Shown: positions 4,865 to 63,420 of the stretch, piece by piece | Layout of the letters: every line of letters starts with the position of its first letter | How positions within the stretch are numbered: position 1 is the first letter of the stretch | From: Candidatus Micrarchaeia archaeon | GTDB taxonomy: Archaea > Micrarchaeota > Micrarchaeia > Burarchaeales > JAVZCV01 | DNA length: 64,000 nt | NCBI GenBank assembly: GCA_038874215.1 | Contig: JAVZCV010000002.1 | Span: 1-64,000, forward strand | Reading direction: 5' to 3' | Made by a program: the position numbers and the translations under genes | The notes under the pieces: generated by a model | Database searches by the model: none | What the model was told of the DNA's origin: nothing | The model's input: only the letters and a program-made list of their open reading frames with translations

Positions 4865-4905
4865 CAACCGCTAATACTTAAATAGATGGGAAGTGAATTA
4901 GTCTC

Positions 4906-5901
4906 ATGGATGAAAAGAGGGATGTCGCAAAGCTCCTTAAAGAGTTCGTTGAAAGAGAAAAGACAAGGTTAGCGGAATTTGAAAAGCCAAAATTGTACTC
5001 AATACCATATCTGCCGATAATGCGCTTTGAGCAGGCTGCAAACATTGCGAAGCACTTAAAGCCACTAGTTCCCTTCCTATTTTTTATAAAACGCGATCTT
5101 GATAAGGACCTATCAGAGGCAGATATAGAAATAGATACTGATGTTTATGCTTCTGTTGCTTTGCTAGTCGGCATCTTCTACTTTATTTTTTTCATGCTCA
5201 TATTCTGGACATTTTCGCTTAACATTACGATACAACAACTTTTTCCAGAGACGTACGAAAGCCTCATGCAGATGGCTTTTCCTGTATCTATCTTCATCGG
5301 CTTTCTGATGACGCTCCAGACACTAAACTACCCGAGCATAATCGCCCAAAGAAAGGCAAAAGATGTCGACAAAAACCTACTTTATGTTATAAGGCATTTG
5401 ACGATTCAGGTTCGCTCTGGCGCCACGCTTTACGATGCTATGAAGAGCGTTGCTGCAAGCGACTACGGCTCAATCTCAAAAGACTTCCACCAAGGAGTGC
5501 GTATGGTTCTCGCAGGCTTTTCTCTACCAGACGCAATAGACCACATAGCTATGAAAAACAAATCAAAGCAACTCAGAAAAATACTATGGCAAACCGAAAA
5601 CGCAGTTAGAACGGGTGCGAACATAGGGGATGTTCTTATGACTCTCAGCGAAAACTACTTTAACGAACAGAAGGTTGCAATTGAGCAATTTGGAAAAGAC
5701 CTGAGCACGATGAGCATGTTCTTTCTTGTTCTCACCGTGATATTCCCTGTTATGGCTGTGATAGGGCTCGTCCTCTCTGCCCTGTTACCCATACAGTCAA
5801 TGCCCTCCTACATACTTTATATCTTCTTGGGCTTCATAGTTTTTGTTCAATATCTCTTCCTCAATTATGTCCGCGAAAAGAGACCCGCGGTGCATTTCTA
5901 G
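4906..5901 (+). CDS. Type II secretion system F-family / type IV pilus platform protein (PilC/TadC-like)
   Basis: T2SSF pattern (IQVRSGATLYDAM...YGSISKDF...TGANIGDVL) with multiple TM helices. Confidence 0.85.
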   Translation: MDEKRDVAKLLKEFVEREKTRLAEFEKPKLYSIPYLPIMRFEQAANIAKHLKPLVPFLFFIKRDLDKDLSEADIEIDTDVYASVALLVGIFYFIFFMLIFWTFSLNITIQQLFPETYESLMQMAFPVSIFIGFLMTLQTLNYPSIIAQRKAKDVDKNLLYVIRHLTIQVRSGATLYDAMKSVAASDYGSISKDFHQGVRMVLAGFSLPDAIDHIAMKNKSKQLRKILWQTENAVRTGANIGDVLMTLSENYFNEQKVAIEQFGKDLSTMSMFFLVLTVIFPVMAVIGLVLSALLPIQSMPSYILYIFLGFIVFVQYLFLNYVREKRPAVHF

Positions 5902-5908
5902 TGGTTTT

Positions 5909-6949
5909 ATGGCGCGAGCAAAAAGACGAACACTCGTATCTGCTCTTAAAGAAACATTTGACCTTCAAAAAGCCCTTCTTCATGCAGATGTGCCCCTTAG
6001 CCCCTTTCAGTATCTGCTTATAACTTTAGGCGCTTTTCTGGTATTTGCTGGCATTGGCATAATGATCTTCCCAAAACTTTTTGGCATTGGCACAATCACG
6101 AGTGCATCACTAGGTATCGCGATTGCGGGTTTTTCTTCATGGGGGTTCTTGGTGGTTATGGCGGAGAGAAAAAAGAAAGAGCTTGAAGAGGCACTGCCCG
6201 ATACCCTCCTATTGATAGCAACAAACATGCGAGCGGGAGCTACGATAGACAGGGCGATGAGCAGCATAATACCACACAGCTTCGGCGCCATGAGAAAGGA
6301 GCTTGATATAACGAGCAGAGAGCTTGCAAGCGGCGTACCGCTTGAAGTTGCTTTCAGAAACCTCGCTGAAAGAAGCCCAAGCCCTCTCGTAAAAAACGTC
6401 TGCGACATGGTGATATACGGAATAGAGGCAGGGGGCGATATGACCGACCTACTCATAGATACATCTTTTGAAATCCGCATGACACAAACGCTCCAAAAAG
6501 AAGTAGCAGCGCAGGTTACAACATACCGCACATTCTTTGTTTTTACCGTGCTTATAGTTTCACCAATACTACTCGCAGTAGCAACTAACTTTCTGGCAAT
6601 AACAAAGGCTTTCAGCTCGCAGTTCAGATCAGAATTGCAGGATAGGGATTTGCCCCCAATAGTTCTCGCGCGCGGTGGCATAGTTGTTGGCTTTGTGAGA
6701 AAACTGCAAACTGAGGGTCTGGGGGGGCGAATAACAGTACAGGATATGAGAATATTTTCCTATTCCTTATGTACTGTTTCCTCAATAATCTCATGCCTTC
6801 TCCTTGGCATAATAAGCGATGGCGAGATGCGTGCAGGTATAAAATACATCCCTATTTTTGTGATTGTTTCGCTTTCCGTTTACTTCTACGCGGACCAATT
6901 TGCAACGCAGATGTTAAACGAGGCTTTTGGCGGTCTCCTTTCTCAGTAA
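5909..6949 (+). CDS. Type II secretion system F-family / type IV pilus platform protein (PilC/TadB-like)
   Basis: LPDTLLLIATNMRAGATIDRA...GVPLEVAF...GGDMTDLL T2SSF signature; TM helices. Confidence 0.88.
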   Translation: MARAKRRTLVSALKETFDLQKALLHADVPLSPFQYLLITLGAFLVFAGIGIMIFPKLFGIGTITSASLGIAIAGFSSWGFLVVMAERKKKELEEALPDTLLLIATNMRAGATIDRAMSSIIPHSFGAMRKELDITSRELASGVPLEVAFRNLAERSPSPLVKNVCDMVIYGIEAGGDMTDLLIDTSFEIRMTQTLQKEVAAQVTTYRTFFVFTVLIVSPILLAVATNFLAITKAFSSQFRSELQDRDLPPIVLARGGIVVGFVRKLQTEGLGGRITVQDMRIFSYSLCTVSSIISCLLLGIISDGEMRAGIKYIPIFVIVSLSVYFYADQFATQMLNEAFGGLLSQ

Positions 6950-6964
6950 AGCTACACGTTTATG

Positions 6965-6978
6965 GAAAAGTATAAAAA
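6965..6978 (+). promoter_or_regulatory. Putative BRE/TATA promoter upstream of arlB1
   Basis: gaaaagtataaaaa in the intergenic region before the archaellin; motif match only. Confidence 0.45.
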
Positions 6979-7062
6979 GGGGTTATTGGATAACCATATC
7001 ATTGGCCGAAGAGCAGCGACCGTAGTTAAACATCTACACGTGGGGATTAGCGGTGGCGTTAT

Positions 7063-7665
7063 ATGTTTGATGGGAGCCGAATGAAAACCAAGCGTGGTGC
7101 TGTTGGTATCGGAACTCTGATAATCTTCATAGCGATGGTCCTTGTGGCCGCAATCGCTGCCGCAGTTCTCATCAACACCTCTGGTATTCTCCAACAAAGG
7201 TCCATGATGACTGGCAAAGAATCAATAGCGCAGGTTTCAACGAATATAAAAGTTTCTTCCATAATCGGCTTTACCGATGCCAATTTCAGCAATATAGAGA
7301 ACCTTAGTATTTTCATAACGATGGCACCGGGTGCGCAGCCACTGAACCTAAAATATCTTATCGTAGTGGTTGGAAACAACAACAACCAAACGACAAACCA
7401 ATTCTCAGAAGAGCTCGAGAACAATACCTTCACCCCAAGAATAATACGCGACCCAAACAATCTTTTCTCAACGACAAACCCAGTCATAGATAGTTCGTCT
7501 CTTGTTGAGCTTAAAATCACGCCAGCAAATATGTCACCAATCGTACTTTTGCCACCTCGCACCACACTTCATGTAGAACTAATCCCCGAGCATGGCTCGC
7601 CCGTTATCATAGAAACAAAAACCCCACAAACATACGCCACATCAATACAGCATCTCTATCCATAG
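7063..7665 (+). CDS. flaB: Archaellin ArlB/FlaB (copy 1; alternative start 7081)
   Basis: [37 protein letters not shown] archaellin N-terminus; C-terminal ELIPEHG motif. Confidence 0.97.
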
Positions 7666-7675
7666 GAAAACCAAC

Positions 7676-7689
7676 GAAAAGTTTATATA
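7676..7689 (+). promoter_or_regulatory. Putative BRE/TATA promoter upstream of arlB2
   Basis: cgaaaagtttatat(a) fits the archaeal BRE-TATA consensus. Confidence 0.5.
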
Positions 7690-7744
7690 GTGCGTAATGT
7701 TATTCCATTAGGAAAGCAATAAGAAAAAGGGAAGGAGGGAGAAC

Positions 7745-8338
7745 ATGCAATATAAAAAGGGTGCTGTTGGTATCGGAACTCTGATAATCTTCATAGCGAT
7801 GGTCCTTGTGGCCGCAATCGCCGCAGCCGTTTTGATAAACGTTTCTGGCATACTGCAACAGAGGGCAATGTCCACGGGCAAAGAGGCAATAGCCCAAGTC
7901 TCATCAAACATAATAGTAACATCTATATCTGGGAAAACCAATACTAATAAGACGAACATAGATAATCTCACCATAACCATTTCTGCGGCGGCAGGCGCTG
8001 GAAGGATAGACATCGGCAAAATGATTCTGAAGATTAGTAACGGGGATAACCAGACAGAGCAGAAATACAACGGGACCATAAACAATCCGGATGGTGCTCA
8101 CTTCACCGCAACAGCTCTCAGAGACCCGACAGGCCTATTTACTAAAGAATTGCCCGTGATAGACTCAAGCAGCTTAATTCAATTGCATGTTGTGCCAAGC
8201 AACGATACAACCCCTGTCTATCTGCCACCAAGAACGCCATTGCATATAGAGCTCATCCCAGAGCACGGTGCATCTGTTACGATAGATTTAGTAACGCCTT
8301 CAACATACCCAACTACCCTCCAGCAACTTTATCCATAA
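7745..8338 (+). CDS. flaB: Archaellin ArlB/FlaB (copy 2)
   Basis: [29 protein letters not shown] archaellin signature; GGAGG RBS. Confidence 0.97.
   Translation: MQYKKGAVGIGTLIIFIAMVLVAAIAAAVLINVSGILQQRAMSTGKEAIAQVSSNIIVTSISGKTNTNKTNIDNLTITISAAAGAGRIDIGKMILKISNGDNQTEQKYNGTINNPDGAHFTATALRDPTGLFTKELPVIDSSSLIQLHVVPSNDTTPVYLPPRTPLHIELIPEHGASVTIDLVTPSTYPTTLQQLYP
7766..7860 (+). repeat. 95-nt perfect repeat shared by arlB2 (7766-7860) and arlB3 (18444-18538); 62 nt shared by arlB1 (7096-7157) and arlB2 (7760-7821)
   Basis: Direct nucleotide comparison; synonymous sites are also identical. Confidence 0.9.
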
Positions 8339-8346
8339 ACAGTCAG

Positions 8347-8366
8347 CCTTTTATTCTCCTTTTTTT
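8347..8366 (+). terminator. Putative U-rich terminator after arlB2
   Basis: Pyrimidine tract ending in a T7 run just downstream of the arlB2 stop. Confidence 0.35.
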
Positions 8367-8386
8367 AATCTATCTTAGGTAATCCC

Positions 8387-8974
8387 ATGGAAATCATAAC
8401 TATCTTCAAGAAGGCACTTGGTTTACAAAAGGACGAAAAGGAAAGCGAAGAGAAAAAAGAGCAAGAGGCAAGTGCGAGTGAGATTGAGGTAGAGTTACCA
8501 GAAGGGGGCGGAATTTTTGATACGGAGGAGATAGACTCCTTGAAAAAAGAGCTCAGTGCAAGCGGTTCAAAAATAAGCGATCTGGAAGGAAAGCTGGTAA
8601 AGATAGAGGCCCAAAACCACCAAATCCAGAAAGAGATAGACGCTATAAAAAAACGCATGGATGAAATAGACGCAAGAATAATTGAAATGATGTCCATATA
8701 CGAGGTAGTTTCAAATCAAATAAACCCCTTTGTAGGCGAAACTAAAAATGTGAGTGCAAACGTAATCGAAGTTAAGGCGGAGCTTGAAAAACTTCGTGAG
8801 CAGGTTTCTGTTCTTGCAGCAGATGTTCGTATAATGGCGAGAAGCAGGATAAATATAAGCAGGGTTATAGAAGAAGTTCTGAGCACGCCGCCAAAGAAAA
8901 AAACCGTTGATCTAAGTAAATTGATAAAAACCGCCATACAGGAGAAGAGGAGGGATAATCTTGGTGCAGAGTGA
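8387..8974 (+). CDS. flaC: Archaellum accessory protein ArlC/FlaC
   Basis: Coiled coil followed by the MSIYEVVSNQINPFVG FlaC motif; position after archaellins. Confidence 0.9.
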   Translation: MEIITIFKKALGLQKDEKESEEKKEQEASASEIEVELPEGGGIFDTEEIDSLKKELSASGSKISDLEGKLVKIEAQNHQIQKEIDAIKKRMDEIDARIIEMMSIYEVVSNQINPFVGETKNVSANVIEVKAELEKLREQVSVLAADVRIMARSRINISRVIEEVLSTPPKKKTVDLSKLIKTAIQEKRRDNLGAE

Positions 8975-9665
8975 TGAACCAACTGGAAGAGGCAGTGAGC
9001 GCATTCTGACACCAGACGAAATAGAAGCAAAACTTTCGGTTTATCAATCACGCTTGCCCTCAACTGTTATAGAAGAACTTCTTCGCTATCTGAAAACGAT
9101 GAAGCTCAGCGAGTCAAAAGTTGATGAAATAATATCGCGTGTGGCATCAAAATACAGCGGCGAAGATGTATCCGAACAGATAGACTCCCTCTCATCAAAA
9201 CTTGATACTCTGAGCGCAACAGTTTCACGCATGGTTGCAGCAATAGAGAAGGAGCGCTCATATTTGGAAAGAGAACCAACCCCGCCCACCGAAGAAGTTC
9301 CAGAAGCCGAGCCAAAAACTCCCTTCCTTTCAAGCCTTAGGGAGGATGCAGTGACAAGAACGCTTTTTCTGAAATGGGTTGAGTTCCTTCTTTCACGTGT
9401 TGGGCATGAGCGGCTTGATGAGGCTCTAAACTTTTATGTTGACATAGGCTGGATAACTGAGGAAATAGCGATGAAAGCACTCGCATACTCCAAGGGAATA
9501 TCAACAAAGAAAGGCAGAAAATCATCAAAATTAACGCCAGAGGACCATCTTCGTACCCTCATATTTCTAGAGCGGTTAGGCGGTAAAAAAATAGACGAAA
9601 ATCTAATAACGAAAGCAGAGCGGGAAATAACATACCTGCTTGAAAAAAGACTGCGGAGGCCTTGA
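8961..9665 (+). CDS. flaD: Archaellum accessory protein ArlD/E (FlaD/FlaE)
   Basis: WVEFLLSRVG...L.FYVDIGWITE...DHLRTLIFLERL FlaD/E domain signature. Confidence 0.88.
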   Translation: MVQSDEPTGRGSERILTPDEIEAKLSVYQSRLPSTVIEELLRYLKTMKLSESKVDEIISRVASKYSGEDVSEQIDSLSSKLDTLSATVSRMVAAIEKERSYLEREPTPPTEEVPEAEPKTPFLSSLREDAVTRTLFLKWVEFLLSRVGHERLDEALNFYVDIGWITEEIAMKALAYSKGISTKKGRKSSKLTPEDHLRTLIFLERLGGKKIDENLITKAEREITYLLEKRLRRP

Positions 9666-9712
9666 ACGACATGCCTCTAAATATTTAAATAGAAAATAAC
9701 CTATTAAGATGC

Positions 9713-10153
9713 ATGGGTCTGAGCACGGTAGCAACATTCGCACTTTTTGCACTCGCCTTAATCTCTATCGTACTTGTCTCCTACGCCATAATCAACGAAT
9801 CTGCTAAGACAACCGTTGAAGCGATACGGGAGGAGCACAATCTTTTTAGGCTACGGCAGGCAACAAGCATAAAAATAAATAACATAAGCGTTAGCGGTAT
9901 TTGCACAAACTATAATCTCACCATATCCGCTACGAATATGGGCAGCATAGCGCTTGACAGGGCTAAGATGAACATACTTGATAACGGTGTTCTTATAAAC
10001 AACACTATGAGGGGAGCGTGGGCACCAGGAAGTGATATATATCTCAACTACACAGAGATGAGTACTATGGCAAGCAACCACACAATAAAAATAGTCACAG
10101 AAAATGGCGTTTCGGCAATCGGAAAGTATAACCTAACCGATTGCGAGATATAG
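9713..10153 (+). CDS. flaF: Archaellum stator protein ArlF/FlaF
   Basis: MGLSTVAT + TM; N.GS, G.WAPG and KIVTENG motifs; precedes arlG. Confidence 0.82.
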   Translation: MGLSTVATFALFALALISIVLVSYAIINESAKTTVEAIREEHNLFRLRQATSIKINNISVSGICTNYNLTISATNMGSIALDRAKMNILDNGVLINNTMRGAWAPGSDIYLNYTEMSTMASNHTIKIVTENGVSAIGKYNLTDCEI

Positions 10154-10161
10154 GTGAAAAT

Positions 10162-10626
10162 TTGGGGTTTGACACGTCCTTCACGCATGCCATGTTTTTC
10201 ATAGCGTCAATAGTTGTCGCAATCGCGGTTATATCTGTTCTGTCAACATCTATAAACACTATTAACAATAGCATAACAGTTCGTACCAACACTTTGGCTG
10301 CCCAGATAAGGACTGACATAACCATAATAAACGATCCCTGCTTTGTGAACCGTTCTATTTTTGTCAAGAATACTGGTAAAACAATATTGAACGCAAAGCT
10401 TGTAGACATATACGTTGATGGGAACTACACCCAGTATGATGCAGTAAGCATTCTGCGGAGTCCTACTGGTGTATGGGAGCCCTACAACGAAAGCAATGGA
10501 TGGCGCCCGCAAGAGGTCGTGAATTTCTCTTTTTCGTATCCATTGCCTGCTGGAACGCATACGCTGTTCGTGAGAACGGAAAATGGCGTATACGATAAAA
10601 TGCTATATACGAACGAGACATGCTAG
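10162..10626 (+). CDS. flaG: Archaellum stator protein ArlG/FlaG
   Basis: TTG start after AGGTGA RBS; THAMFFIASIVVA, IRTDITIINDP, FVKNTG, W.P.E motifs. Confidence 0.88.
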   Translation: MGFDTSFTHAMFFIASIVVAIAVISVLSTSINTINNSITVRTNTLAAQIRTDITIINDPCFVNRSIFVKNTGKTILNAKLVDIYVDGNYTQYDAVSILRSPTGVWEPYNESNGWRPQEVVNFSFSYPLPAGTHTLFVRTENGVYDKMLYTNETC

Positions 10627-10671
10627 ATGCGCACACCAACATTAAAAAACAACTAAAAGAAACAATATACC

Positions 10672-11109
10672 ATGAGAGCACAGGTTTCCTTTGAATACAT
10701 TTCGCTTTTCACGCTCCTACTTATTCCACTCGCAGTCGCTTTCCTCTATTCTTATGCCGCTGTTTTCCAAGCAACATCCGCTTACAAAATAGAAACAAGC
10801 CTTGATAAGCTTGCCCAAAATGCAGAAGAACTGTATGTGCAGGGGCCAGGCGCCAAATCCATAGTAACAATAGACCTGCCTAGCGGCATAAATGCCCATG
10901 GTTCATTTATAGGGAATTCTTCGGGCGGACCGGGTCGCTACATTATGCTTAATTTCTCGGGTTCAAATGCCGTGAGAATTACCCGCGCAACCGTCCAAGG
11001 ATACTGGCCAAATACTACGGGTGGCTATGTTCGACCAGGCATACTGCAGATGAACCTAACCGTTGATAATAACAACATTGTTATTATGAGACCGTTGAGG
11101 AGTGGTTAA
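10672..11109 (+). CDS. Class III signal peptide (type IV pilin-like) protein
   Basis: MRA|QVSFEY plus hydrophobic helix; LYVQGPGAK motif typical of archaeal minor pilin-like proteins. Confidence 0.8.
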   Translation: MRAQVSFEYISLFTLLLIPLAVAFLYSYAAVFQATSAYKIETSLDKLAQNAEELYVQGPGAKSIVTIDLPSGINAHGSFIGNSSGGPGRYIMLNFSGSNAVRITRATVQGYWPNTTGGYVRPGILQMNLTVDNNNIVIMRPLRSG

Positions 11110-11490
11110 ATGCGGAGAGGACAGGTTGGTACCGAATACATAGCCGCATTTACTCTTTGGGTGATGGTGTGCGTAATAATAAGCTACACCCTCTCTTCGT
11201 ATTCCCTTAGCTTAAAGGAAAGTAGGGATACGAATGCCCGCAACACGATTCTTGGGCATTTTTTTTCTCTTGCCGATGATGCAACAGAACCCTCAACAAA
11301 AATCTCTGGCATTTTTTTAGAAGACTACAACATAACCTTCTTTGGTAATATTGGCAGCCTCTCTTCACGAAATAAGACCACACTCGGCTACACAACGGCA
11401 AATTTTACGTATTCTGACACAATAGGGCGTGGCGATACTTTCCTAATCAAAAATGTCAACGGCACATTTCTCCTAATAAAAGAAGAATGA
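11110..11490 (+). CDS. Class III signal peptide (type IV pilin-like) protein
   Basis: MRRG|QVGTEY plus hydrophobic helix. Confidence 0.75.
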   Translation: MRRGQVGTEYIAAFTLWVMVCVIISYTLSSYSLSLKESRDTNARNTILGHFFSLADDATEPSTKISGIFLEDYNITFFGNIGSLSSRNKTTLGYTTANFTYSDTIGRGDTFLIKNVNGTFLLIKEE

Positions 11491-11497
11491 TGGTGTT

Positions 11498-11989
11498 ATG
11501 AAACGAGCGCAGATTGCCACTCTTGACATGCTGCTTGCGATTACGGTACTTCTACTCATCGTTTTTTCCTTCATCATGTTTCTTATTGTTGAGATGCATG
11601 AGAAAGATAAAAAAAGCCATGCAGATTCCGAAAGAATCCTTTCAGCATTGGTTGGAAGCTCTGGCAAACCGTCAAACTGGACGAGCACCCACTTCATAAT
11701 CCCGGGGCTGAAATGCGGGCAAGGCGTCGTTTGCGCAAATAAAATCAAAGAGCTCAATAATTCATGCGGTTCCTCATCGCAATCCGGCTATGTTTCTGTT
11801 AAAAAAAGCCTCGGCATACCCACACAATACTACCTGATAGGATACTATGCCAGCAATTCAGAAAGATGCCTGTGTGGTTGCGATCTTTCAGAAAGAAGAA
11901 ATACTGCATTGGAAGTTTCAAAATCAAGCCTCCTCGTTTCATTGGACAATAATATAACACGTCTCTCAATCTATTTATGGAACAGATGA
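11498..11989 (+). CDS. Class III signal peptide (type IV pilin-like) protein
   Basis: MKRA|QIATLD plus hydrophobic helix; SSGKPSNW motif; several Cys. Confidence 0.75.
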   Translation: MKRAQIATLDMLLAITVLLLIVFSFIMFLIVEMHEKDKKSHADSERILSALVGSSGKPSNWTSTHFIIPGLKCGQGVVCANKIKELNNSCGSSSQSGYVSVKKSLGIPTQYYLIGYYASNSERCLCGCDLSERRNTALEVSKSSLLVSLDNNITRLSIYLWNR

Positions 11990-13663
11990 CTAAACTATTG
12001 TGGGTGCTGGCAGAACTGCTGCAAGCATCAAGTCTACAATCACTGCGGTTATCGCCCCCGTCCACGTCAGACCCACGAAATGAAGAAGCGAGTTTGTCAG
12101 GTGTCCGCCATCTATTAATCTTATGGCAACCGCCGAGAGTAGCGCATTAGCAAGCAGTATTATGAGCAGAAGAAGAGATATAACCTCAAGAGTATGGCTC
12201 TTTGGCAGCATTATCAGGCTCGTGAAAACTGACTCTGGTATCTCCATGCTCGTGTATAATTTATTTAGGTAAACCAATATGCCATTTGATACGTATATGC
12301 AGAAGATTACGCCTGCCTGCAACCCATACATTATCCCTATGAAGCTCGTTGTGGCGTGATAACGCTCACGCCTTAACATCTGTAATTTCATGAAATTTCT
12401 GCCTATCATCTGAGCTACTGCGTTTGGTTTTCCACCAAGCCCTATCGCCTCAATAAACATCTCGCTAAACCTGCTTATCAGATAGCTGCCTGCCTCTATT
12501 CTAAAAAAATGCCATGCTTGGAAAACATCTATATTCGTCTTGATACGCTCAAACAAGTTTTTTATTATCGGCGTTAAAGGCCCGAAGTCATGATAAGCCA
12601 AAGATTTGAGAGCACCGCGCATAACTCCGCCGCGTGCAGCCGTTTCAAGCCCAAGCGAAATTATGAATTCAACGAAAAACATGTCCCTGCGTTTTATTAA
12701 TTCCTCTATACTCCTTGCAACATAACCGACACCAACAAGCGGCGTTATTGTCAGCGCAGCCATTATCGGTGCTGGCAGTCCCCTCCAATATGTGTTGATA
12801 ATGAGCGATACAAAAACTATCCCCACAAGAGATACCGCAAAGGCAGGAAGAATCTGCCTCCTCATCTCGTTGTTTGCGTATTCGGTGTACCATATTCTAT
12901 CTTCTGGCAATATACTCTTTATATAATAAACAACCCCCAACTCTGCAACAGCATAGAGAATCATAACGAAACCTATTAGGACTGTGGGGTCAGTACCGCT
13001 TATATACGGAATTACGATTGCAAACGAAACGAGAAAAACAAGCGTTATCACCATAGATGTATAAACCTCTTTCAATACATCAACATCATAGAGCGCACCA
13101 CGGTATCTTATTGAATAATCGCTTAGGACGATCTCCTGCTCCTCGCCAAGGAAAACTTCTATGTTCTCCCCAGCTTCCAATGCGTTTGCAAACCTATCCA
13201 GAAAATCTGCAAATATTATACTCGGGGTTTGCCTTGCCTCTATCCTGCACGCATCTGCGAGTGTCGTCCTCCATACAGAGAAGCGCAGGTATATGTTCCT
13301 GCACGAATCAGCAAGAGCGCCGTACTCCTTTCTAGCTGCCATAACTCTAAAAAGCTCCCCCGTTGGTACCTCACATGTAGAAAGTGCACCCATCTGCGTT
13401 ACAAAAAAATGTATGTTGTTTTCAATCTCCGTCTTAACATTTTCTGCCAAAAGATAAGGGTAGACAAGCACAAGCGCCACTACGAGAAAAGGAAAAGCAA
13501 AAAGGAAGACGAGAAAAATGCCCGTGAAAAGTTGTGGGACAAGAAAATAAACCACTACTGAAGTTAGAAGAGATAAAACAAAAATAGGCAAAACAACCTG
13601 TGTGAGGTAGTCATAAAGGGTATACCCAACATTTTTCACAAGGTCGGCATACCCCTCTACCAT
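11990..13663 (-). CDS. flaJ: Archaellum platform protein ArlJ/FlaJ
   Basis: 557 aa, two T2SSF halves, FADFLDRFA..GE and DFGPLT motifs; directly downstream of arlI. Confidence 0.95.
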   Translation of the reverse strand: MVEGYADLVKNVGYTLYDYLTQVVLPIFVLSLLTSVVVYFLVPQLFTGIFLVFLFAFPFLVVALVLVYPYLLAENVKTEIENNIHFFVTQMGALSTCEVPTGELFRVMAARKEYGALADSCRNIYLRFSVWRTTLADACRIEARQTPSIIFADFLDRFANALEAGENIEVFLGEEQEIVLSDYSIRYRGALYDVDVLKEVYTSMVITLVFLVSFAIVIPYISGTDPTVLIGFVMILYAVAELGVVYYIKSILPEDRIWYTEYANNEMRRQILPAFAVSLVGIVFVSLIINTYWRGLPAPIMAALTITPLVGVGYVARSIEELIKRRDMFFVEFIISLGLETAARGGVMRGALKSLAYHDFGPLTPIIKNLFERIKTNIDVFQAWHFFRIEAGSYLISRFSEMFIEAIGLGGKPNAVAQMIGRNFMKLQMLRRERYHATTSFIGIMYGLQAGVIFCIYVSNGILVYLNKLYTSMEIPESVFTSLIMLPKSHTLEVISLLLLIILLANALLSAVAIRLIDGGHLTNSLLHFVGLTWTGAITAVIVDLMLAAVLPAPTIV

Positions 13664-13665
13664 CT

Positions 13666-15267
13666 CTACACCGTTGGGAGGGAGTCAATACCCTCTTCAT
13701 AGTATCTCACAAACATTTTGAGAACACTGTCGTAGTCAAATATTTTCTTTGCATACATTGCATCAAGCACTCTTTTTCTCTTCTCAAGTTCTATGTAAAC
13801 CATTCTCTTCTCAGCATAACCCGCCATCGGGGCTATTTTCTCTTCAAGTATGTAGCTGTTGTGCAGTCCAAGGAACCTATGTTCATCCCTGCTTCCATCC
13901 CATTCAAACATCTGCTTCGTTATAACACCCCCCGCCTCCTCCGAATAGCCCTCTATTTCCTCTATTGAAATACACCTTCTCTGGAACCTGCCTTTTATAT
14001 AAACTGCCTGCAGGATTGCAACAACATGCAGGTTATCCATAAAAGTTATTGGTATGTTAATAGGATTGCCAACAAGCCTCTGTATAAGTCTCCTGACGCT
14101 TCCTGCATGGAATGTGGCAAGAACAGAGTGGCCTGTTTGCATCGCTTGAAATGCGACAGAGCCTTCAACACCCCTTATTTCCCCAACAATTATGTAATTG
14201 GGCCTTGAACGCAGGGCTGCTTTTAATATAGAGAACATATCGACTCTTGATTCTTCTGGTCCTGTAGTCCTCGTTACAAGCCTCTGCCATATTTTATGCG
14301 GCGGCCTAACCTCTGGCGTATCCTCAGCGCTCAATATCTTCAAGTCTGGTCTTATCATTGGTAAACATGCGTTAAGAAATGTAGTCTTGCCGCTTGCCGT
14401 TTCTCCTGAGAAGAATATATTCATGCCGTACTCTAAGCATATCCATAGGTATGCTGCCATCTCAGTGCTTATTGTACCAAGCTTTACCAAGTCCATTATG
14501 CTCATTGGGACTGCGGCAAATTTCCTAACCGTAAAACTCGGGCCTCTTATGCTTATATCATCAGCATATATTATGTTTATCCTGCTTCCATCAGGAAGCA
14601 CGGAGTCCGCTATCGGCCTTGCAACACTGACAGGATGCCCTATTCTCTCGCTCAGGTTGCGGAGATATTCCCCAAGGTATTGGAGATTATCAAACTTAAG
14701 GTTTGTTATAAGCGGGCCGAATATCTTATGCACCACGCCTATCTCGTTCGTGCCAACTACGTGTATGTCTTCAAGGTTCCAGTCATCTACAAGTGGTTGT
14801 ATAAGCGCATGCCCTATTATGTCTCTTTTCAGCTGATAAATAAACTTCACGTACTCTTCATCTGTTACATAAACCTTCTTCGTTCCCCAGTCTCTAAAAG
14901 TCAGCCTTGTGCGCTTAACGCTTTTTTCATATAGCCTTAAAAGAGTCTTTTCAAGTTCTTTCTCGTCCTCAGGAACTTCCTCTCTCGGTGCATTCTCAAG
15001 TATTGCATTCAGAATGCGTCCATACTTCGTTCTCTCAGCTTGTGTTAGTTGGGGTTGTATAACCTCATATCTTCTAATGTGTTTATCTATAAAAATATGA
15101 ACGAAAACATGTTCGCCCGCAGGATATATTATATTAACGAACGGTTCGTCCCCAAGCTCTCTCGTGAGCCTCTCGTAAAACCTCGGAATGCGCCCCGTCT
15201 CCTTCTTCAACCTATCAATATACTGCCGCAGGTGTGGCTCCTTTTTTATTGCCTCATCAAATTCCAC
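13666..15267 (-). CDS. flaI: Archaellum motor ATPase ArlI/FlaI
   Basis: GTG start after AGGTG RBS; Walker A GETASGKTT, ALRSRPNYIIVGEIRG, TGHSVLATFHA; N-terminal PHLRQY. Confidence 0.95.
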   Translation of the reverse strand: MEFDEAIKKEPHLRQYIDRLKKETGRIPRFYERLTRELGDEPFVNIIYPAGEHVFVHIFIDKHIRRYEVIQPQLTQAERTKYGRILNAILENAPREEVPEDEKELEKTLLRLYEKSVKRTRLTFRDWGTKKVYVTDEEYVKFIYQLKRDIIGHALIQPLVDDWNLEDIHVVGTNEIGVVHKIFGPLITNLKFDNLQYLGEYLRNLSERIGHPVSVARPIADSVLPDGSRINIIYADDISIRGPSFTVRKFAAVPMSIMDLVKLGTISTEMAAYLWICLEYGMNIFFSGETASGKTTFLNACLPMIRPDLKILSAEDTPEVRPPHKIWQRLVTRTTGPEESRVDMFSILKAALRSRPNYIIVGEIRGVEGSVAFQAMQTGHSVLATFHAGSVRRLIQRLVGNPINIPITFMDNLHVVAILQAVYIKGRFQRRCISIEEIEGYSEEAGGVITKQMFEWDGSRDEHRFLGLHNSYILEEKIAPMAGYAEKRMVYIELEKRKRVLDAMYAKKIFDYDSVLKMFVRYYEEGIDSLPTV

Positions 15268-15275
15268 AACCCCAC

Positions 15276-16154
15276 CTAAACATACGAGATGCTGTCCTCG
15301 CATTCATAATGCATTACCGTAATGCCCTTCAAATCCCTTTCAAGTTTCTCTGCGAGGTTTTGCATTATCAGTCTTTCAAGCCTGCTTCTCTCTATATCTA
15401 TTAGTGAGATGCCAAGATCATCTGCATAGCGTGCCACCGTCTCCGTCATCTCAGAAGAAACAACAACCTGCGCCCCTTTCAGATACATCTCTTCTATAAC
15501 ATCAATATACTTCAGCCCTGGTCCTATGAAGCACCCAACCTTTGTAATGGGCTTGCTTGATTCTACATCGCCCGTTATTCTAATGACATCGCACAAATAC
15601 GAAGTTTTTAGCGTGCTTACTATATTCCCTAGCGTTGTTTCCGCAATTTCCCCAATTCTACCGCATTTGAATTTTTCAACAACGTGCATACCAAGCACCT
15701 TAGCCAAAGCATCCGCAGTGCCCCCCTCAGCATCATCCAGATTTGAGTGCATAACATAAACACACACATCTTTTGCTGCGAGCCTCTTAATCCTCTTCGC
15801 ATTTGGGGGTTTTTCAAAAAATGAAATGCCAGGGAAAATCGCCCTCTTTTCTTCAAAAAACGGGTATTCATGAAGAACGAACATATCTATGTCTGCTTCC
15901 ACTTCCTCTGGCGTCTTTTTTCTTAGAGCAAAACGTGCATGCAAAGGGCTTATCTTTCTGGGCTTTATCTCCTGCGTTACTTCAAGAAGGTTTGCCTGCT
16001 CCATTACATAATCTGTTATTGCCCAAGCAACTCCCACCTTTTTGACTACCTTGTTAGGGTCGCCGAAAACAAGGCCTACCGGGTCGTCCTCAAACGCCAA
16101 TGATAGTGGTGCTATCTTCTCAAGTCGCCCAACTATCTCCGATGCTAGCATCAA
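15276..16154 (-). CDS. NIF3/DUF34-family dinuclear metal-centre protein (divergent)
   Basis: LEKIAPL.LA..DD.VGL..G and HSNLD..EGG motifs. Confidence 0.8.
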   Translation of the reverse strand: MMLASEIVGRLEKIAPLSLAFEDDPVGLVFGDPNKVVKKVGVAWAITDYVMEQANLLEVTQEIKPRKISPLHARFALRKKTPEEVEADIDMFVLHEYPFFEEKRAIFPGISFFEKPPNAKRIKRLAAKDVCVYVMHSNLDDAEGGTADALAKVLGMHVVEKFKCGRIGEIAETTLGNIVSTLKTSYLCDVIRITGDVESSKPITKVGCFIGPGLKYIDVIEEMYLKGAQVVVSSEMTETVARYADDLGISLIDIERSRLERLIMQNLAEKLERDLKGITVMHYECEDSISYV

Positions 16155-16254
16155 ATCACTCTCTTCTCACCATTATATACCTGCCTTTAATTTTAAACCT
16201 ATTGTATGTTGAAACAACAAATCTATTTTAAGGTGTTATGAGAAAGGTCTTTTC

Positions 16255-16941
16255 ATGAGAAAAAAAATAGCATTCATGCTCGCTGTTTTTTTATTCATGT
16301 CCGTATCAGCGGCAGAAGTAAAACTATCAAATACTAGGATAGTCTGTTGCGATAGATGGACATCTCTGGTGAACGTCAGCGAAGATGCCAAACCCCTGCG
16401 TGCGCGGGTTATGCTTGTTGCCCTATCCCCCACAGAAATCCGCCTCAATGCTACTTTCTTCACAGACTCTAATGGCATCGCACAGGTTTCATATACCCCG
16501 TCTGCGCCAGGCGAGATTGTTTTAATAAAAGTTTACAAAAATGAGAGTCCTATCTATGAGGCCTTTATTGAGGTTTCTTCAAACCCAAACCAGACCCCCA
16601 AGACCATTTTAGGCATTCCATTAGAAATTTTTCCGTTTGACGTTATAGCGCTTATCTACAATCTTTCATTAATAACGATTGTCCTATCAGCATTCTTACT
16701 GGTTCTACTTTTTGTCCACGTATACTACAAGCGTCGGGGGATAGATTTGTTTGATATTTTTAGGCGAAAAATATCCCTGCTCCTATTCTGGATTAAAGGA
16801 AGATTGCTTCCAATCTACGCCACGTTTAAAAAACTCGGCAAAAAACAAGAACAAGACCTAAGCTCCATTAGAATGCGCAGGGCAGTTCTTTCAACTAAGC
16901 AAGAAAAGAAAATAGGTGGGAACACAGGCAAAAACCCCTAA
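16255..16941 (+). CDS. Hypothetical membrane protein (signal peptide, Ig-like domain, TM, basic tail) upstream of arlH
   Basis: 228-aa ORF; TDSNGIA Ig-like motif; long hydrophobic helix. Confidence 0.65.
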   Translation: MRKKIAFMLAVFLFMSVSAAEVKLSNTRIVCCDRWTSLVNVSEDAKPLRARVMLVALSPTEIRLNATFFTDSNGIAQVSYTPSAPGEIVLIKVYKNESPIYEAFIEVSSNPNQTPKTILGIPLEIFPFDVIALIYNLSLITIVLSAFLLVLLFVHVYYKRRGIDLFDIFRRKISLLLFWIKGRLLPIYATFKKLGKKQEQDLSSIRMRRAVLSTKQEKKIGGNTGKNP

Positions 16942-16976
16942 GCAATATGCTTTAATATCATATTCTATATTCTTTT

Positions 16977-17672
16977 ATGGCACTTCCGCTTTCATTTAAG
17001 ATAGAAGTTGACGATTTGGACAAGCGCCTTGGAGGCGGAATACCAAAAGGTTCGCTTGTGCTGATAGACGGCGAGCACGGGACTGGCAAGAGCGTTTTAG
17101 TCCAGAGGCTTGCATACGGATTTCTCCAAAATGGGTACTCCGTTACTTTTATCTCAACACAACTCACAACCAAGGATTTCATAAGCCAGATGTATTCACT
17201 TGGCTATGATATTCTGAAATACCTCTCAAAAAACAAACTGCTCTTCATCTCTGTTTTTCCACTTTTGGGCGAGCACAAAAAAGAAGACGTCTTCTTTAAA
17301 AAGCTCGTAGAAACGCAGGAACTTTACAAAAACGACATCATTTTCATAGATACGCTCTCCTCAATAATACGATACTCCTTGGATTTGGGAAAAATAGACG
17401 ATTTAATCGGTTTCTTTAAAAGGCTGACGGGCATAGGTAAAACCATATTCGTAACGCTCGGAGAAGGAGACCTTGACTCCATGATAGTGGGCGAACTCGT
17501 ATCAAGTGCTGACATCCACATAACCATGAAGGCGAAAACATTCGGCGAGGATATAAAGCACATGCTCGTGATTAACAAGTATGCAGGAGCCCTTCAGCCA
17601 TACAGCACAATGACTGGCTTCCGCATAGTCCCGAAAATAGGTTTCGTAATAGAAATCGCAACAGTTGCTTAA
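16977..17672 (+). CDS. flaH: Archaellum KaiC-like ATPase ArlH/FlaH
   Basis: LDKRLGGGIP, Walker A GEHGTGKS, FISQMYSLGY, C-terminal FRIVPKIGFVIEI. Confidence 0.93.
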   Translation: MALPLSFKIEVDDLDKRLGGGIPKGSLVLIDGEHGTGKSVLVQRLAYGFLQNGYSVTFISTQLTTKDFISQMYSLGYDILKYLSKNKLLFISVFPLLGEHKKEDVFFKKLVETQELYKNDIIFIDTLSSIIRYSLDLGKIDDLIGFFKRLTGIGKTIFVTLGEGDLDSMIVGELVSSADIHITMKAKTFGEDIKHMLVINKYAGALQPYSTMTGFRIVPKIGFVIEIATVA

Positions 17673-17688
17673 TCGCTGCAAAATCAGC

Positions 17689-17704
17689 GAAACATTTATA
17701 AATA
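17689..17704 (+). promoter_or_regulatory. Putative BRE/TATA promoter for the pilin-arlB3 pair
   Basis: gaaacatttataaata upstream of 17797. Confidence 0.45.
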
Positions 17705-17796
17705 GCCTAATAGAAATAAAAACTGCCACGTGTGGGAGCAAGGCGACGAATTATGGCAATAAGCATCCTACTCGTAGGTATATAGGAGGTGCAGCA

Positions 17797-18387
17797 ATGT
17801 CCGAGAAAAAAGGCCAAGGTGCTTTTGAATACCTTATGAGCTATGGTTGGGCTATCCTTATCGTGATCGTGCTCGGTATAGTGCTCTGGAACCTTGGTGT
17901 TTTCAACCCAAACACAACCCCAGAAGCAAGCGGCTTCACTATCCTCAGACCAGGAACATGGGAGTTCACAGGAGCAGCATCGCAAACGGGCTGGGCAGAA
18001 GCAGAAGGTGACACTTCGGTGACATATGTTGCAATCGCATTCCAGAATGTGGCAGGAATAGACTTGATACTTAGAGTTAATGAAACCAATTCTTCTATAC
18101 AATTCAAAAAACCAGGTTCTGGAATATGTCAATTTCATACAAATCCAGGTTCAGATATTTTTGTGAACGCTACGGATGAACAGGGGAATAGGCTTGTAAT
18201 AACCGACAACTCAGTCGCTGTGCCTGCAGGCTCCACAGTAATACTACGAGGATGGCTTAAAAGCGATCAGGGGGGTTGTGGGGGATTAAGCAAAGGTCCT
18301 TATAGGTATTCGGTGATTACCGTTTCAACAGATGCATTTAACATCTCTCATACGGATACAGGCTTCATAACTGGGAGGTATACCTAA
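17797..18387 (+). CDS. Class III signal peptide type IV pilin (DPANN-type, candidate major pilin)
   Basis: GGAGGTG RBS; KKG|QGAFEYLMSYGWAILIVIV signature. Confidence 0.88.
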   Translation: MSEKKGQGAFEYLMSYGWAILIVIVLGIVLWNLGVFNPNTTPEASGFTILRPGTWEFTGAASQTGWAEAEGDTSVTYVAIAFQNVAGIDLILRVNETNSSIQFKKPGSGICQFHTNPGSDIFVNATDEQGNRLVITDNSVAVPAGSTVILRGWLKSDQGGCGGLSKGPYRYSVITVSTDAFNISHTDTGFITGRYT

Positions 18388-18410
18388 TAAAATTTTAAGA
18401 GGTGCTACGC

Positions 18411-19010
18411 ATGAGATTTGATAAAAATACCAAACGTGGTGCGGTTGGTATCGGAACTCTGATAATCTTCATAGCGATGGTCCTTGTGGCCGCAATCGCC
18501 GCAGCCGTTTTGATAAACGTTTCTGGCATACTGCAACAAAGGGCGATGACGACGGGCAAAGAGTCAATAGCGCAGGTTTCATCCAACCTGATAGTAACAG
18601 GCATAACGGGCTATACTGATGATAACAGAACAAACATAGAGAACATAAGTATCTATATAACTGCGGCATCTGGTGCGGGGAGGCTTGACCTACGTTATCT
18701 CATAATGAAAGTAGGCAACAACATTAACGAGACACCGCAACGCTACTCAAATGTCTCATCGGGTGATAGCAATTTCACTGCGCAAGTGCTCAGAGATCCT
18801 GCAAACTTATTCACACCGAATAACCCGGTGATAGACTCTACATCTTTAATAGAGCTTAAAATAATACCAAGCAACGATACAACTTTTGTTTCCTTGCCCC
18901 CACGGTCTCCGTTTCACATAGAGCTTATCCCAGAAAGGGGCGCACCACTCGTGATAGATACGATGACACCAAGCACTTATGCAACCAACATTCAACACCT
19001 CTACCCATAG
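18411..19010 (+). CDS. flaB: Archaellin ArlB/FlaB (copy 3)
   Basis: [38 protein letters not shown]. Confidence 0.97.
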   Translation: MRFDKNTKRGAVGIGTLIIFIAMVLVAAIAAAVLINVSGILQQRAMTTGKESIAQVSSNLIVTGITGYTDDNRTNIENISIYITAASGAGRLDLRYLIMKVGNNINETPQRYSNVSSGDSNFTAQVLRDPANLFTPNNPVIDSTSLIELKIIPSNDTTFVSLPPRSPFHIELIPERGAPLVIDTMTPSTYATNIQHLYP

Positions 19011-19404
19011 CCCCCTCTCCCCTTTCTTTTCATTTCTACCACAATAGAAAGAATAACTGATAATAGGTAAATTAGGAAAAAAGCAGACAAAGCTAACTTT
19101 ATACTGGTTTTAAAGTAAAAAAACGATTCTGGTGCCAATCCTCTCAACAAGTTTCCGAAAAACCAACCCCATGTCTTACACAAAGAAAAAATAGCGGATC
19201 AAAAAACCAAGGAAGATTACCCGAAAATCTAAATCCCAAGACGAGCCAGACTATCGCTATCAAAAATTCAAAACAATACCCCGAAATCCCATACTGTGAT
19301 ATTATTGGCGAACCCTCTGCATAGGGTCCTATAGTCAAATAATTCACAAGTGAGCTAACCATGTCTGCAAAAACGAGCAGAAAAGCGAGAAAAAACAATC
19401 TCAT
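19001..19404 (-). pseudogene. Small membrane protein gene split by a 1-nt frameshift (or assembly indel)
   Basis: ORFs 19144-19404 and 19001-19183 fuse into one 134-aa hydrophobic ORF if one base is added to the A5 run at 19158-19162. Confidence 0.5.
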
Positions 19405-20234: not shown

Positions 20235-20286
20235 GCTTGGCTAAACTGTTTTTGCATTTTTAAGTTTTTTCATCCATTCTATACTC

Positions 20287-63297: not shown

Positions 63298-63420
63298 TCT
63301 AACCCTCTTTTATACCACATAGGTTTCCTTCATTACTGCTTGCATGGCCGCCTTTTTCAAAAAAAGGCACAGCATCACCAAAACAATTTAATTAATTACA
63401 TATAAACTTATTTGGAGTCT

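Follow-up and report, generated by a model that had tools for sequence, protein, structure and literature searches.

A complete archaellum gene set interleaved with genes of a probable type IV pilus in a Micrarchaeota genome

The window analysed here is a stretch of 64,000 nucleotides (nt) from a Candidatus Micrarchaeia archaeon (assembly GCA_038874215.1, contig JAVZCV010000002.1, positions 1 to 64,000). Archaellum and pilus genes were located within its positions 3599-19010. On balance, this region is probably part of a conserved composite, in which a complete archaellum, probably gained by horizontal transfer, has been inherited together with a dedicated type IV pilus of the Epd-like kind whose genes are dispersed; the two are likely coordinated for a swim-then-attach behaviour. 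The coordination is the most plausible reading of the data and is drawn only from the linkage and co-occurrence of the genes.

Gene content of the composite locus

Genes were called from the open reading frame (ORF) listing together with Pfam and NCBIfam scans. The preliminary description of the window had claimed every core archaellum gene, and the complete set was confirmed at or near the positions given there: three arlB genes, arlC, arlD/E, arlF, arlG, arlH, arlI and arlJ. These genes, the adjoining NIF3-family gene and a peptidase gene at the window end are listed below.

7063-7665, + strand: arlB1, archaellin; Arch_flagellin 121.3 bits, NF006325 164 bits (under the 210-bit cut-off)
7745-8338, + strand: arlB2, archaellin; Arch_flagellin 119.1 bits
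8387-8974, + strand: arlC; FlaC_arch 60.2 bits (cut-off 27.8)
8961-9665, + strand: arlD/E; Arch_fla_DE 80.5 bits (cut-off 21); overlaps the end of arlC
9713-10153, + strand: arlF, stator protein; NF052590 58.3 bits, E-value 8.7e-16, full length (1-137/137), under the 110-bit equivalog cut-off
10141-10626, + strand: arlG, stator protein; NF052591 84.7 bits, under the 110-bit equivalog cut-off; Arch_flagellin 58.5 bits
11990-13663, - strand: arlJ, archaellum platform; NF004704 575.8 bits (cut-off 550)
13666-15303, - strand: arlI, archaellum motor ATPase; NF058587 689.5 bits (cut-off 550)
15276-16154, - strand: nif3, NIF3-family gene; DUF34_NIF3 (PF01784) 119.4 bits (cut-off 23.4); overlaps the start of arlI
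16977-17672, + strand: arlH, KaiC-like archaellum ATPase; NF006320 254.6 bits, NF052589 242.2 bits (cut-offs 215)
18402-19010, + strand: arlB3, archaellin; Arch_flagellin 118 bits; likely start ATG 18411
63412-64000, + strand: A24-family prepilin/prearchaellin peptidase; PF01478 45.3 bits (cut-off 26.5) at 63451-63774; ORF of 289 amino acids (aa), continues past the window end

The Arch_flagellin cut-off is 29.5 bits; with NF006325 the three window archaellins scored 155-164 bits, under the 210-bit cut-off. A fourth archaellin lies beyond the window (G000:C2:93380-94024, where G000 denotes the host genome). For ArlF and ArlG the best-scoring models were the correct ones, the alignments were near full-length, and the position and order of both genes fit. 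PF01478 gave one match in the whole of G000 (91% complete), which makes the peptidase the sole A24 peptidase of the genome, and no EppA-type dedicated peptidase was found there. CheF and CheW were not found in the same 91% complete genome, and the switch proteins ArlC and ArlD/E are apparently without their usual chemotaxis partner in G000.

The arl genes do not form a single compact co-directional operon from arlB to arlJ. The arlJ-arlI pair lies on the opposite strand, arlH and arlB3 lie beyond it, and eight non-arl genes are interleaved. A compact operon is a trait of the typical loci and not of the machine itself. The inversion of arlJ-arlI with respect to the surrounding arl genes had been missed in the preliminary description, as had the NIF3-family gene. 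The NIF3 profile matches the solved NIF3 proteins 2gx8, 4iwg and 3wsd (E-values 7e-19 to 9e-17), and the window protein scored 87.5 bits with TIGR00486, under the 130.55-bit cut-off. Judged by overlap and order, nif3 is predicted to be the first gene of a nif3-arlI-arlJ operon. The NIF3 family has long been without a clear function.

The genes of the second system, together with a small gene upstream of arlH, are as follows.

3599-4864, + strand: u3599, large pilin-like protein; KGQ motif and hydrophobic helix near the N-terminus; likely start ATG 3641
4906-5901, + strand: platN, N-terminal half of a split type IV pilus platform (PilC/TadC/EpdJ-like); T2SSF 56.1 bits
5843-6949, + strand: platC, C-terminal half of the split platform; T2SSF 55.9 bits; likely start near 5909
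10672-11109, + strand: pX1, minor-pilin-like; begins MRAQVSFEY, class III signal-like motif MRA/QVSFEY
11110-11490, + strand: pX2, minor-pilin-like; begins MRRGQVGTEY, motif MRRG/QVGTEY
11498-11989, + strand: pX3, minor-pilin-like; begins MKRAQIATLD, motif MKRA/QIATLD
16255-16941, + strand: u16255, small membrane protein, divergent from nif3 and upstream of arlH; no family found
17797-18387, + strand: pX4, major-pilin-like; motif MSEKKG/QGAFEY; open frame from 17665, likely start ATG 17797 after GGAGGTG

The three small pilin-like genes after arlG and the pilin directly upstream of arlB3, which had been claimed before, were all present, the latter as a KGQGAFEY pilin between arlH and arlB3. 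The claim of two PilC-like platforms had to be revised. One T2SSF domain (cut-off 25.2 bits) was detected in each of platN and platC. In alignments with the ArlJ and UpsF models, platN corresponds to the first half and platC to the second, so the two genes encode the halves of one split platform; two separate platforms were thereby ruled out. The platform of the Epd pilus is also split into two genes. The gene set was extended by u3599 upstream of the platform and u16255 upstream of arlH, both of which belong to the conserved set. For u3599 no Pfam family was found, and an Atlas search gave no usable match.

Class III signal-like motifs are visible in pX1-4. The Pfam family Class_IIIsignal matched pX4 with an E-value of 4 and three pX1 homologues with E-values of 1e-4 to 5e-3, all under the cut-off. 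Only insignificant matches were obtained with Pfam at E-values up to 5 for pX1-4, u16255, u3599 and two further gene products described below (u2760 and a large surface protein).

The spacers were read by eye for archaeal promoters. TATA-like boxes were seen upstream of platN, arlB1, arlB2, arlF, arlH and pX4. A strong GGAGGTG motif precedes pX4, the stop codon of which lies 23 nt before the likely arlB3 start. The arlG-pX1 gap is 45 nt, the gaps within the pX1-pX2-pX3 row are 0-7 nt, and the stop codons of pX3 and arlJ abut. The spacing and the promoter-like signals suggest transcripts in which arl and pilin genes are mixed. Scans of the window for transfer RNA genes and Rfam families gave no match.

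The host genome G000 (family f1) comprises 1.13 Mb in 38 contigs and was estimated as 91% complete and 1.1% contaminated. The Micrarchaeota-like identity of the organism, proposed earlier from the letters, agreed with its closest relatives: the nearest ArlI (62% identity) and the pX4 and NIF3 homologues all came from records titled Candidatus Micrarchaeota or Candidatus Anstonellales. The guanine-cytosine content is flat throughout the arl region. Among the sequencing runs listed for positions 9100-19000 there were DNA runs of one hot-spring study and no RNA run, and the assembly was checked by comparing k-mer contigs of run X1 with window positions 3000-21000. A single independent k-mer contig of 10,013 nt covers positions 7841-17853 without a break and extends from arlB2 over the pX trio and the inverted arlJ-arlI-nif3 block to arlH. 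A second contig from the run covers 3000-7125, and the read depth was even (about 10.8). The only breaks coincide with the 5' ends of the arlB genes, which are nearly identical over 62-100 nt, and with the conserved N-terminus of pX4, so that the original assembly is the basis for the order in which the arlB bodies are placed. Since run X1 is probably the source sample, the comparison checks the assembler, not the sample or its biology. A euryarchaeal contaminant or a chimera, which had been named as the case against the preliminary description, was ruled out by the Micrarchaeota closest relatives of nif3-arlI-arlJ and of the pX genes, the even depth and the unbroken 10,013-nt contig. The X1 contig differs from the window by 16 mismatches, all of them between arlI and arlH (14263-17252) and none in the preceding 6.4 kb; this could reflect a second strain or local variability of the sequence.

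Conservation and gene order in relatives

Archaella are rare among DPANN archaea, which depend on finding and holding a host cell. Such rarity, expected from the preliminary description, was also found in the present lineage. ArlI over the curated cut-off was detected in 5 of 61 relatives, in 5 of the 29 members of the order, and in 5 of 401 genomes sampled across the phylum, for which three candidates per genome were scored. The carriers are G000 and four genomes of family f7 (G006, G015, G018 and G021). Another f7 genome, G023 (71% complete), has no detectable ArlI; it has ArlH and three ArlB and was therefore taken as the sixth archaellated genome. ArlI, nif3, ArlH and ArlB are absent from the f7 genome G011 (87% complete), as are orthologues of pX1, platN and a secretion ATPase on contig C8 of G000, which is described in the next section.

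The pilus genes follow the same distribution. PlatN orthologues (E-values up to 3e-102, 50-52% identity) were present only in the five ArlI-bearing genomes among the 61, the next best match being 30% identical. In all four f7 relatives with ArlI, platC orthologues (46-51% identity) adjoin platN and u3599 orthologues (568-573 aa) lie immediately upstream of it. Orthologues of pX1 (E-values up to 1.6e-38, 45-50% identity) were found in 6 of 61 genomes, all archaellated, namely the five with ArlI and G023; the next best E-value was 3e-12. The pX2 (24-29% identity) and pX3 (26-34% identity) orthologues were also present in 4/4 f7 relatives, with pX2 between pX1 and pX3. No T2SSE gene was found beside platN/platC in G000, G006, G015, G018 or G021.

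Within the order, nif3 (E-value up to 1e-10) was detected in 5 of 29 genomes, the same five that carry ArlI, and always directly upstream of arlI. The nif3-arlI-arlJ trio has the same order in all four f7 carriers. The nearest NIF3 relatives outside Micrarchaeota are only 26-27% identical. The metagenome locus L195, which represents a third, deeper archaellated lineage, also has nif3 upstream of arlI; its NIF3 is 45% and its ArlI 57-58% identical to the window proteins. On one strand of L195 lie arlD/E, arlC, arlB, arlH and a u16255-like gene, followed by the divergent nif3-arlI-arlI'-arlJ and then by the gene of a protein of about 600 aa and a pX4 homologue (48%). The u16255-like protein at this position is a weak homologue of u16255 (26% identity over 103 aa, E-value 1e-7), and the divergent arrangement of nif3 and u16255, separated by 100 nt in the window, is kept. 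A NIF3-family protein has probably been recruited to the motor operon of this archaellum. Two tandem full-length arlI genes (L195:11098-12714 and 12833-14443) were observed between nif3 and arlJ.

Gene order was permuted between the lineages. In G021 it is arlB-arlH-pX4-arlB-arlB-arlC-arlD/E. In G006 and G018, u3599-platN-platC is followed after about 4.4 kb by arlB-arlH-pX4-arlB and the contig end. In G015 and G021 a module of a small pilin, u3599, platN, platC, a big surface protein and the ~600-aa protein, without an ATPase, ends at a contig edge. In the four f7 carriers arlF-arlG faces pX3-pX2-pX1 on the opposite strand and a MinD-type ATPase gene precedes arlF; in G000 the pX trio is co-directional with arlG and hence inverted relative to f7. 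The interleaving reported from the window was therefore recovered in relatives, as arl-adjacent pilus genes occur in three lineages, each in a different permutation. It was also noted that ArlF of three f7 genomes is 323-338 aa long (L101:5676-6692; L102:11368-12363, - strand; L103:4855-5826, - strand) and has an insertion of about 190 residues between its N- and C-terminal ArlF-like parts; ArlF of G000 and G015 has 144-146 aa.

The ArlI tree was a quick maximum-likelihood tree of 85 rows, comprising 82 ArlI and three G000 pilus ATPases as the outgroup; its sample, the 79 best-matching loci, holds no TACK or other DPANN archaella. The five Micrarchaeota ArlI formed one clade (Shimodaira-Hasegawa-like approximate likelihood ratio test, SH-aLRT, 100) nested among euryarchaeal ArlI. 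Their grouping with ArlI of Methanosarcinales, anaerobic methanotrophic archaea (ANME) and Methanoperedens was weakly supported (89). A single, probably horizontal, acquisition of the archaellum is the simplest reading of this tree.

It is conceivable, though doubtful, that the interleaving is a historical accident without functional coupling, in which a horizontally acquired archaellum cluster was inserted into a pilus locus already there, or the two came together on a single island, before later rearrangements scattered their genes. The monophyly of the five ArlI, their nesting within euryarchaeal ArlI and their presence in 5 of 401 genomes fit a single acquisition of this kind. The pilus components are of Micrarchaeota type, the gene order differs in each of the three lineages as expected from neutral decay, and no shared regulator was identified. 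However, the parts lie at four or more separate places in f7 and yet are all missing together from G011. The arl-pilus adjacencies persist at ArlI identities of 57-62% while the flanking housekeeping genes are not syntenic; nfo and hdac, which flank the window locus, gave no match in the arl loci of the relatives. In addition, the tight pX4-arlB3 and arlG-pX1 spacing suggests shared transcripts.

The pilin-like proteins and a second secretion ATPase

The pX1 model obtained with AlphaFold2 (AF2) had a predicted local distance difference test (pLDDT) score of 95.8 and consists of a 56-residue helix (2-57) and a six-stranded sheet. The best hit of a wide structural search with this model was the Thermus type IV pilin PilA4, with a Z-score of 4.5 that is within noise. 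Foldseek gave no match for the model at E-values up to 0.001, and a word-index search retrieved only pX1 itself. The profile search over 1.84 billion representatives resulted in 366 matches at E-values up to 0.001, of which only five were at or below 1e-30. In distant homologues the same N-terminal module is joined to lectin-like and Ig-like domains.

The f7 orthologues of pX1 are frames of 240-260 aa (L101:8122-8901, - strand; L102:9301-10020, + strand; L103:2782-3501, + strand; L105:783-1502, - strand). In these, a membrane helix and a coiled coil of about 80 residues lie ahead of the KKAQASIE pilin motif, all within one frame; the window pX1 has no such extension. Cleavage at the putative signal-peptidase site would free a membrane-anchored coiled-coil piece. 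Such long forms (245 and 251 aa) make up two of the five closest clusters of the profile search. In its general outline, the extension presumably recalls crenarchaeal ArlX.

Contig C27 of G000 carries an ordinary pilus locus, in which a KaiC-like gene and a row of five small pilin-like genes occur together with a major pilin, platC, platN and an ATPase. The first of its five small pilins is a paralogue of pX1 (E-value 8e-11). A comparable locus, L120, carries an ATPase, platN, platC, three pX4-like genes coding for distant homologues (28-40%) and a KaiC-like gene. L120 is an ordinary pilus locus, and pX4 belongs to the pilin family of such loci. The pX4 family comprised 28 proteins of a large protein collection, and all source names given were Micrarchaeota or Anstonellales; the QGAFEY..SYGWA motif is invariant within it. 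The AF2 model of pX4 (pLDDT 83) has an N-terminal helix and a beta-sandwich. In Foldseek it gave weak matches (E-values about 1e-3) alike to archaellins, archaeal pilins and FlaF/FlaG, by which pilin and archaellin were not separated. A 376-aa frame of G015 (L105:3251-4381), 2 kb from pX1-3, has a pX4-type globular domain fused to a multi-pass membrane N-terminus that replaces the QGAFEY helix.

Six secretion-ATPase genes were counted in G000: arlI, those of C5 and C27 with platN/platC-like neighbours, that of C13 with a full-length platform, a short lone one on C16 and that of C8. The C8 ATPase has 597 aa and is followed by a KaiC-like gene; pilin-like genes, a secreted protein of about 600 aa and a MinD-type ATPase lie around it, and no platform was seen. 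About five small pilin-like ORFs were observed on both strands of the locus (G000:C8:13251-16014, corresponding to L187:3252-6015), and these may belong to the same system as platN/platC. Orthologues of this ATPase (63-67% identity) were present only in G006, G015, G018, G021 and G023, that is in 5 of the 28 other genomes of the order, the best matches in the other 23 being at most 48% identical; the ATPase-KaiC pair is conserved in f7. No platform adjoins the C8 ATPase and no ATPase adjoins platN/platC; given also their shared distribution, the C8 ATPase is the candidate partner of platN/platC. The pilus gene set matches that of an ordinary Micrarchaeota pilus locus (C27, L120). Taken together, the paralogy of pX1, the pilin family of pX4 and the C8 ATPase with its KaiC-like partner suggest that the second system is a complete but dispersed type IV pilus.

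Neighbours are swapped between the C8 and arl loci of different lineages. The MinD-type ATPase, with its 181-aa neighbour, is placed ahead of the C8 ATPase in G000 and ahead of arlF in f7. In G000 the gene of the ~600-aa protein adjoins the KaiC-like and C8 ATPase genes; its place is next to arlB-arlH in f7 and, in L195, between arlJ and pX4. Similarly, nadC is near arlB3 in G000 and a few kb from the C8-type ATPase in two f7 genomes. One ancestral super-cluster is the simplest account of these exchanges.

It was also considered whether the archaellum of this lineage includes pX1-4, and perhaps also the split platform and NIF3, as integral components. By this account, which is unlikely, pX1-3 would form a priming, tip or stator-associated complex by ArlF/ArlG, pX4 would be a minor or basal subunit with ArlB, and NIF3 would be a motor component bound to ArlI. 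The account draws on the persistence of the adjacencies: pX1-3 adjoin arlF-arlG in 5/5 genomes despite the inversion between G000 and f7, pX4 lies between arlH and arlB in four genomes (G000, G006, G018 and G021) and only 23 nt from arlB3 in the window, and nif3 overlaps arlI and is found within the order only with arlI (5/29). Only archaellated genomes have orthologues of these genes, the f7 pX1 proteins carry the N-terminal membrane and coiled-coil extension, and the pX4 fold weakly matches archaellins as well as pilins.

Nevertheless, pX1 has a minor pilin of an ordinary pilus as its paralogue, and lectin and Ig adhesin domains occur in the wider pX1 family, while pX4-type genes encode the pilins of ordinary Micrarchaeota pilus loci such as L120. 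Archaellin differs in its N-terminus from the mature pX proteins, which have Q at +1 and an acidic residue at +5; this would argue against co-polymerisation. In addition, the pX proteins can be accounted for by the second platform and the second ATPase. In L195, pX4 is not between arlH and arlB. Among 78 non-Micrarchaeota arlI loci, with flanks of at most 10 kb and many shorter, none had a match to pX1-4 or nif3 (tblastn, E-value up to 1e-3). For the hybrid filament with pilin-type minor subunits that the preliminary description had offered as one possibility, no positive evidence was obtained; pX1 is the paralogue of an ordinary minor pilin and the matching ATPase lies elsewhere.

A fuller form of the same idea, also improbable, is an archaellum rebuilt with pilus parts, in which pX1-3 would be a priming or stator-associated complex and pX4 a basal or tip subunit, both assembled by the split platform and its own ATPase, with a NIF3 hexamer on ArlI. 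If true, the work would be divided between two ATPase-platform pairs in a single archaellum; we know of no archaellum with such an arrangement.

Two further genes precede u3599 at the contig start.

5-2749, + strand: large surface protein, rich in N-glycosylation sequons; no Pfam family; continues past the contig start
2760-3644, + strand: u2760, secreted protein from the ORF listing; no family found

The large surface protein has a paralogue on contig C34 of G000, and surface proteins of 788-802 aa lie beside the platform genes in the f7 relatives. Its membership in the system is putative; it could possibly be the adhesin of the pilus module. A u2760 paralogue (36% identity) on C34 is placed between the big-protein paralogue and an ArlG-like gene. 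The C34 segment (L106:5337-7762, - strand) was thus observed to be a paralogous mini-module of a big sequon-rich surface protein, a u2760-like protein (36%) and an ArlG-like protein (29-31%).

A two-machine model and its relation to known systems

The conserved composite of archaellum and pilus can be put as a model of two machines. The first is a complete euryarchaeal-type archaellum made of four ArlB, ArlC, ArlD/E, ArlF, ArlG, ArlH, ArlI, ArlJ and the single A24 peptidase, the motor operon of which has gained a NIF3-family first gene. The second would be a lineage-specific Epd-like type IV pilus, with platN/platC, u3599, pX4 and pX1-3 embedded among the arl genes and the remainder on C8 (the ATPase, its KaiC-like partner, the MinD-type ATPase and the ~600-aa surface protein). 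Both probably derive from one ancestral super-cluster that was cut at different places in three lineages, and both would have been inherited and lost together. ArlI and ArlJ are expected to assemble and rotate the archaellin filament, whereas the C8-type ATPase with platN/platC would assemble a separate adhesive pilus of pX4, primed or tipped by pX1-3. The subunits of the two machines would be processed by the one peptidase. The switch from swimming to host attachment could be coordinated through promoters shared by pX4 with arlB3 and by arlG with pX1, together with crosstalk at the membrane; this crosstalk could resemble the pilin-ArlI/ArlJ regulation of Haloferax, with participation of the KaiC-like and MinD-like ATPases.

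Several observations weigh against the model. No significant similarity links pX2 and pX3 to the second and third C27 pilins, which they resemble in position, size and N-terminal motif only. Among 12 loci examined with a full-length pX4 homologue, three have the order arlH-pX4-arlB (these duplicate stretches counted above under the respective genomes), one has pX1 and pX3 beside it, and the other eight are without an arl or pX neighbour, two of them being tandem arrays of three or four copies. The window pX4 is closer to the array copies (46-49% identity) than to the arlH-linked f7 copies (37-40%). The scores of ArlF and ArlG, 58.3 and 84.7 bits, are under the curated NCBIfam cut-offs of 110 bits. 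G015 (95% complete) has no ArlH orthologue (best match E-value 1.8e-9), and ArlI, ArlJ, ArlB, ArlC, ArlD/E, ArlF and ArlG are present in it. The pairing of the C8 ATPase with platN/platC is drawn only from their mutual orphan status and shared distribution. As all the carriers belong to one ArlI clade, the co-occurrence amounts to about one gain and one loss (G011) and not to many independent events. Every arl-pilus adjacency can be read as a relic of one ancestral cluster, for which selection is not required.

All seven component families of the euryarchaeal archaellum (Methanococcales, Thermococcales) are shared by the present one, with ArlF and ArlG recognised by matches under the curated cut-offs, and ArlC and ArlD/E are of the euryarchaeal kind. 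In comparison with the euryarchaeal operon, arlJ-arlI is inverted and led by NIF3, arlH and one arlB are detached, pilus genes are interleaved, the host is a DPANN archaeon, and CheF and CheW were not found. Nanobdella aerobiophila and Nanoclepta minutus, also DPANN archaea, likewise have archaellum genes in non-canonical order in a reduced, host-dependent archaeon, as far as described in the available parts of PMC13705601 and 10.1101/2023.10.27.564410. The accessible portion of the latter reports only ArlBHIJ for Nanobdella, the free cells of which are non-motile. Unlike in Nanobdella, the stator (ArlF/G) and switch (ArlC/D/E) are present here too, and the genes are clustered, not scattered, and mixed with pilus genes.

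The second system shares the split platform, pilin-like proteins with Q at +1, the row of small minor-pilin-like genes and the KaiC-like neighbour of the ATPase with the system 1 or Epd-type pilus (epd of Methanococcus maripaludis) and with the ordinary Micrarchaeota locus. It differs from both in several ways: its ATPase and KaiC-like genes lie on a separate contig, its platform and pilin genes are scattered among the arl genes, no EppA-type peptidase was found, and its orthologues are limited to archaellated genomes. The small pilin-like genes in a row, the adhesin-domain pX1 homologues and the long helix with a small sheet also recall the minor-pilin priming or tip complexes of bacterial type IV pili and type II secretion. 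However, there is no sequence relationship to these and the structural match is weak (Z 4.5); such a role is proposed by analogy only.

In Haloferax volcanii, pilins control archaellar motility via ArlI/ArlJ, as judged by the pilin H-domain and suppressors in ArlI/ArlJ, and the KaiC-like protein CirA, encoded inside the arl cluster, represses arl genes (10.1101/2024.03.04.583388, in the part available). The present locus is similar in its pilin-ArlI/ArlJ link and in a KaiC-like gene beside arl genes; there the link is genetic, whereas here it is genomic, consisting of adjacency and co-occurrence only. A placement of pilA inside the arl cluster of Haloferax was not found in the available part of 10.1101/2024.03.04.583388.

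According to the accessible part of PMC13705601 (PLoS Genet, Oct 2026), type IV filament genes are scattered in DPANN, 167 DPANN genomes have an archaellum, the ATPase and platform are usually adjacent, and system 1 (Epd-like) pilins occur in 1990 genomes; no mention of Micrarchaeota, of an arl-linked platform or pilins, or of NIF3 was found in that part. Seven archaellum components are described in PMC4858521, where every archaellated archaeon of the set has at least one other type IV pilus system, as stated in the portion at hand. In the accessible text, PMC8561730 describes pili in lineages related to Micrarchaeota, one of which is stated expressly to lack an archaellum, and PMC8407392 lists archaellum proteins for Nanoarchaeota and Woesearchaeota only. 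In the material covered by a literature search on Micrarchaeota with archaellum, ArlI and ArlJ, no description of this locus was found, and no NIF3-family protein linked to an archaellum motor was found by a full-text literature search.

The nif3-arlI-arlJ operon offers a testable lead on the function of the NIF3 family. In annotation, loci of this type will be divided or wrongly classified by those locus-based detectors that rely on an ordered cluster. A full rotary set including stator and switch, of probably euryarchaeal origin, is carried by a 1.1 Mb genome and is linked with a dedicated pilus over family-level divergence. This arl-pilus linkage is suggestive of a genetic coupling between swimming and attachment in these host-dependent cells. 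Were this coupling functional, the system would be a model for the coordination of motility and adhesion filaments of one superfamily and would extend the crosstalk described for Haloferax.

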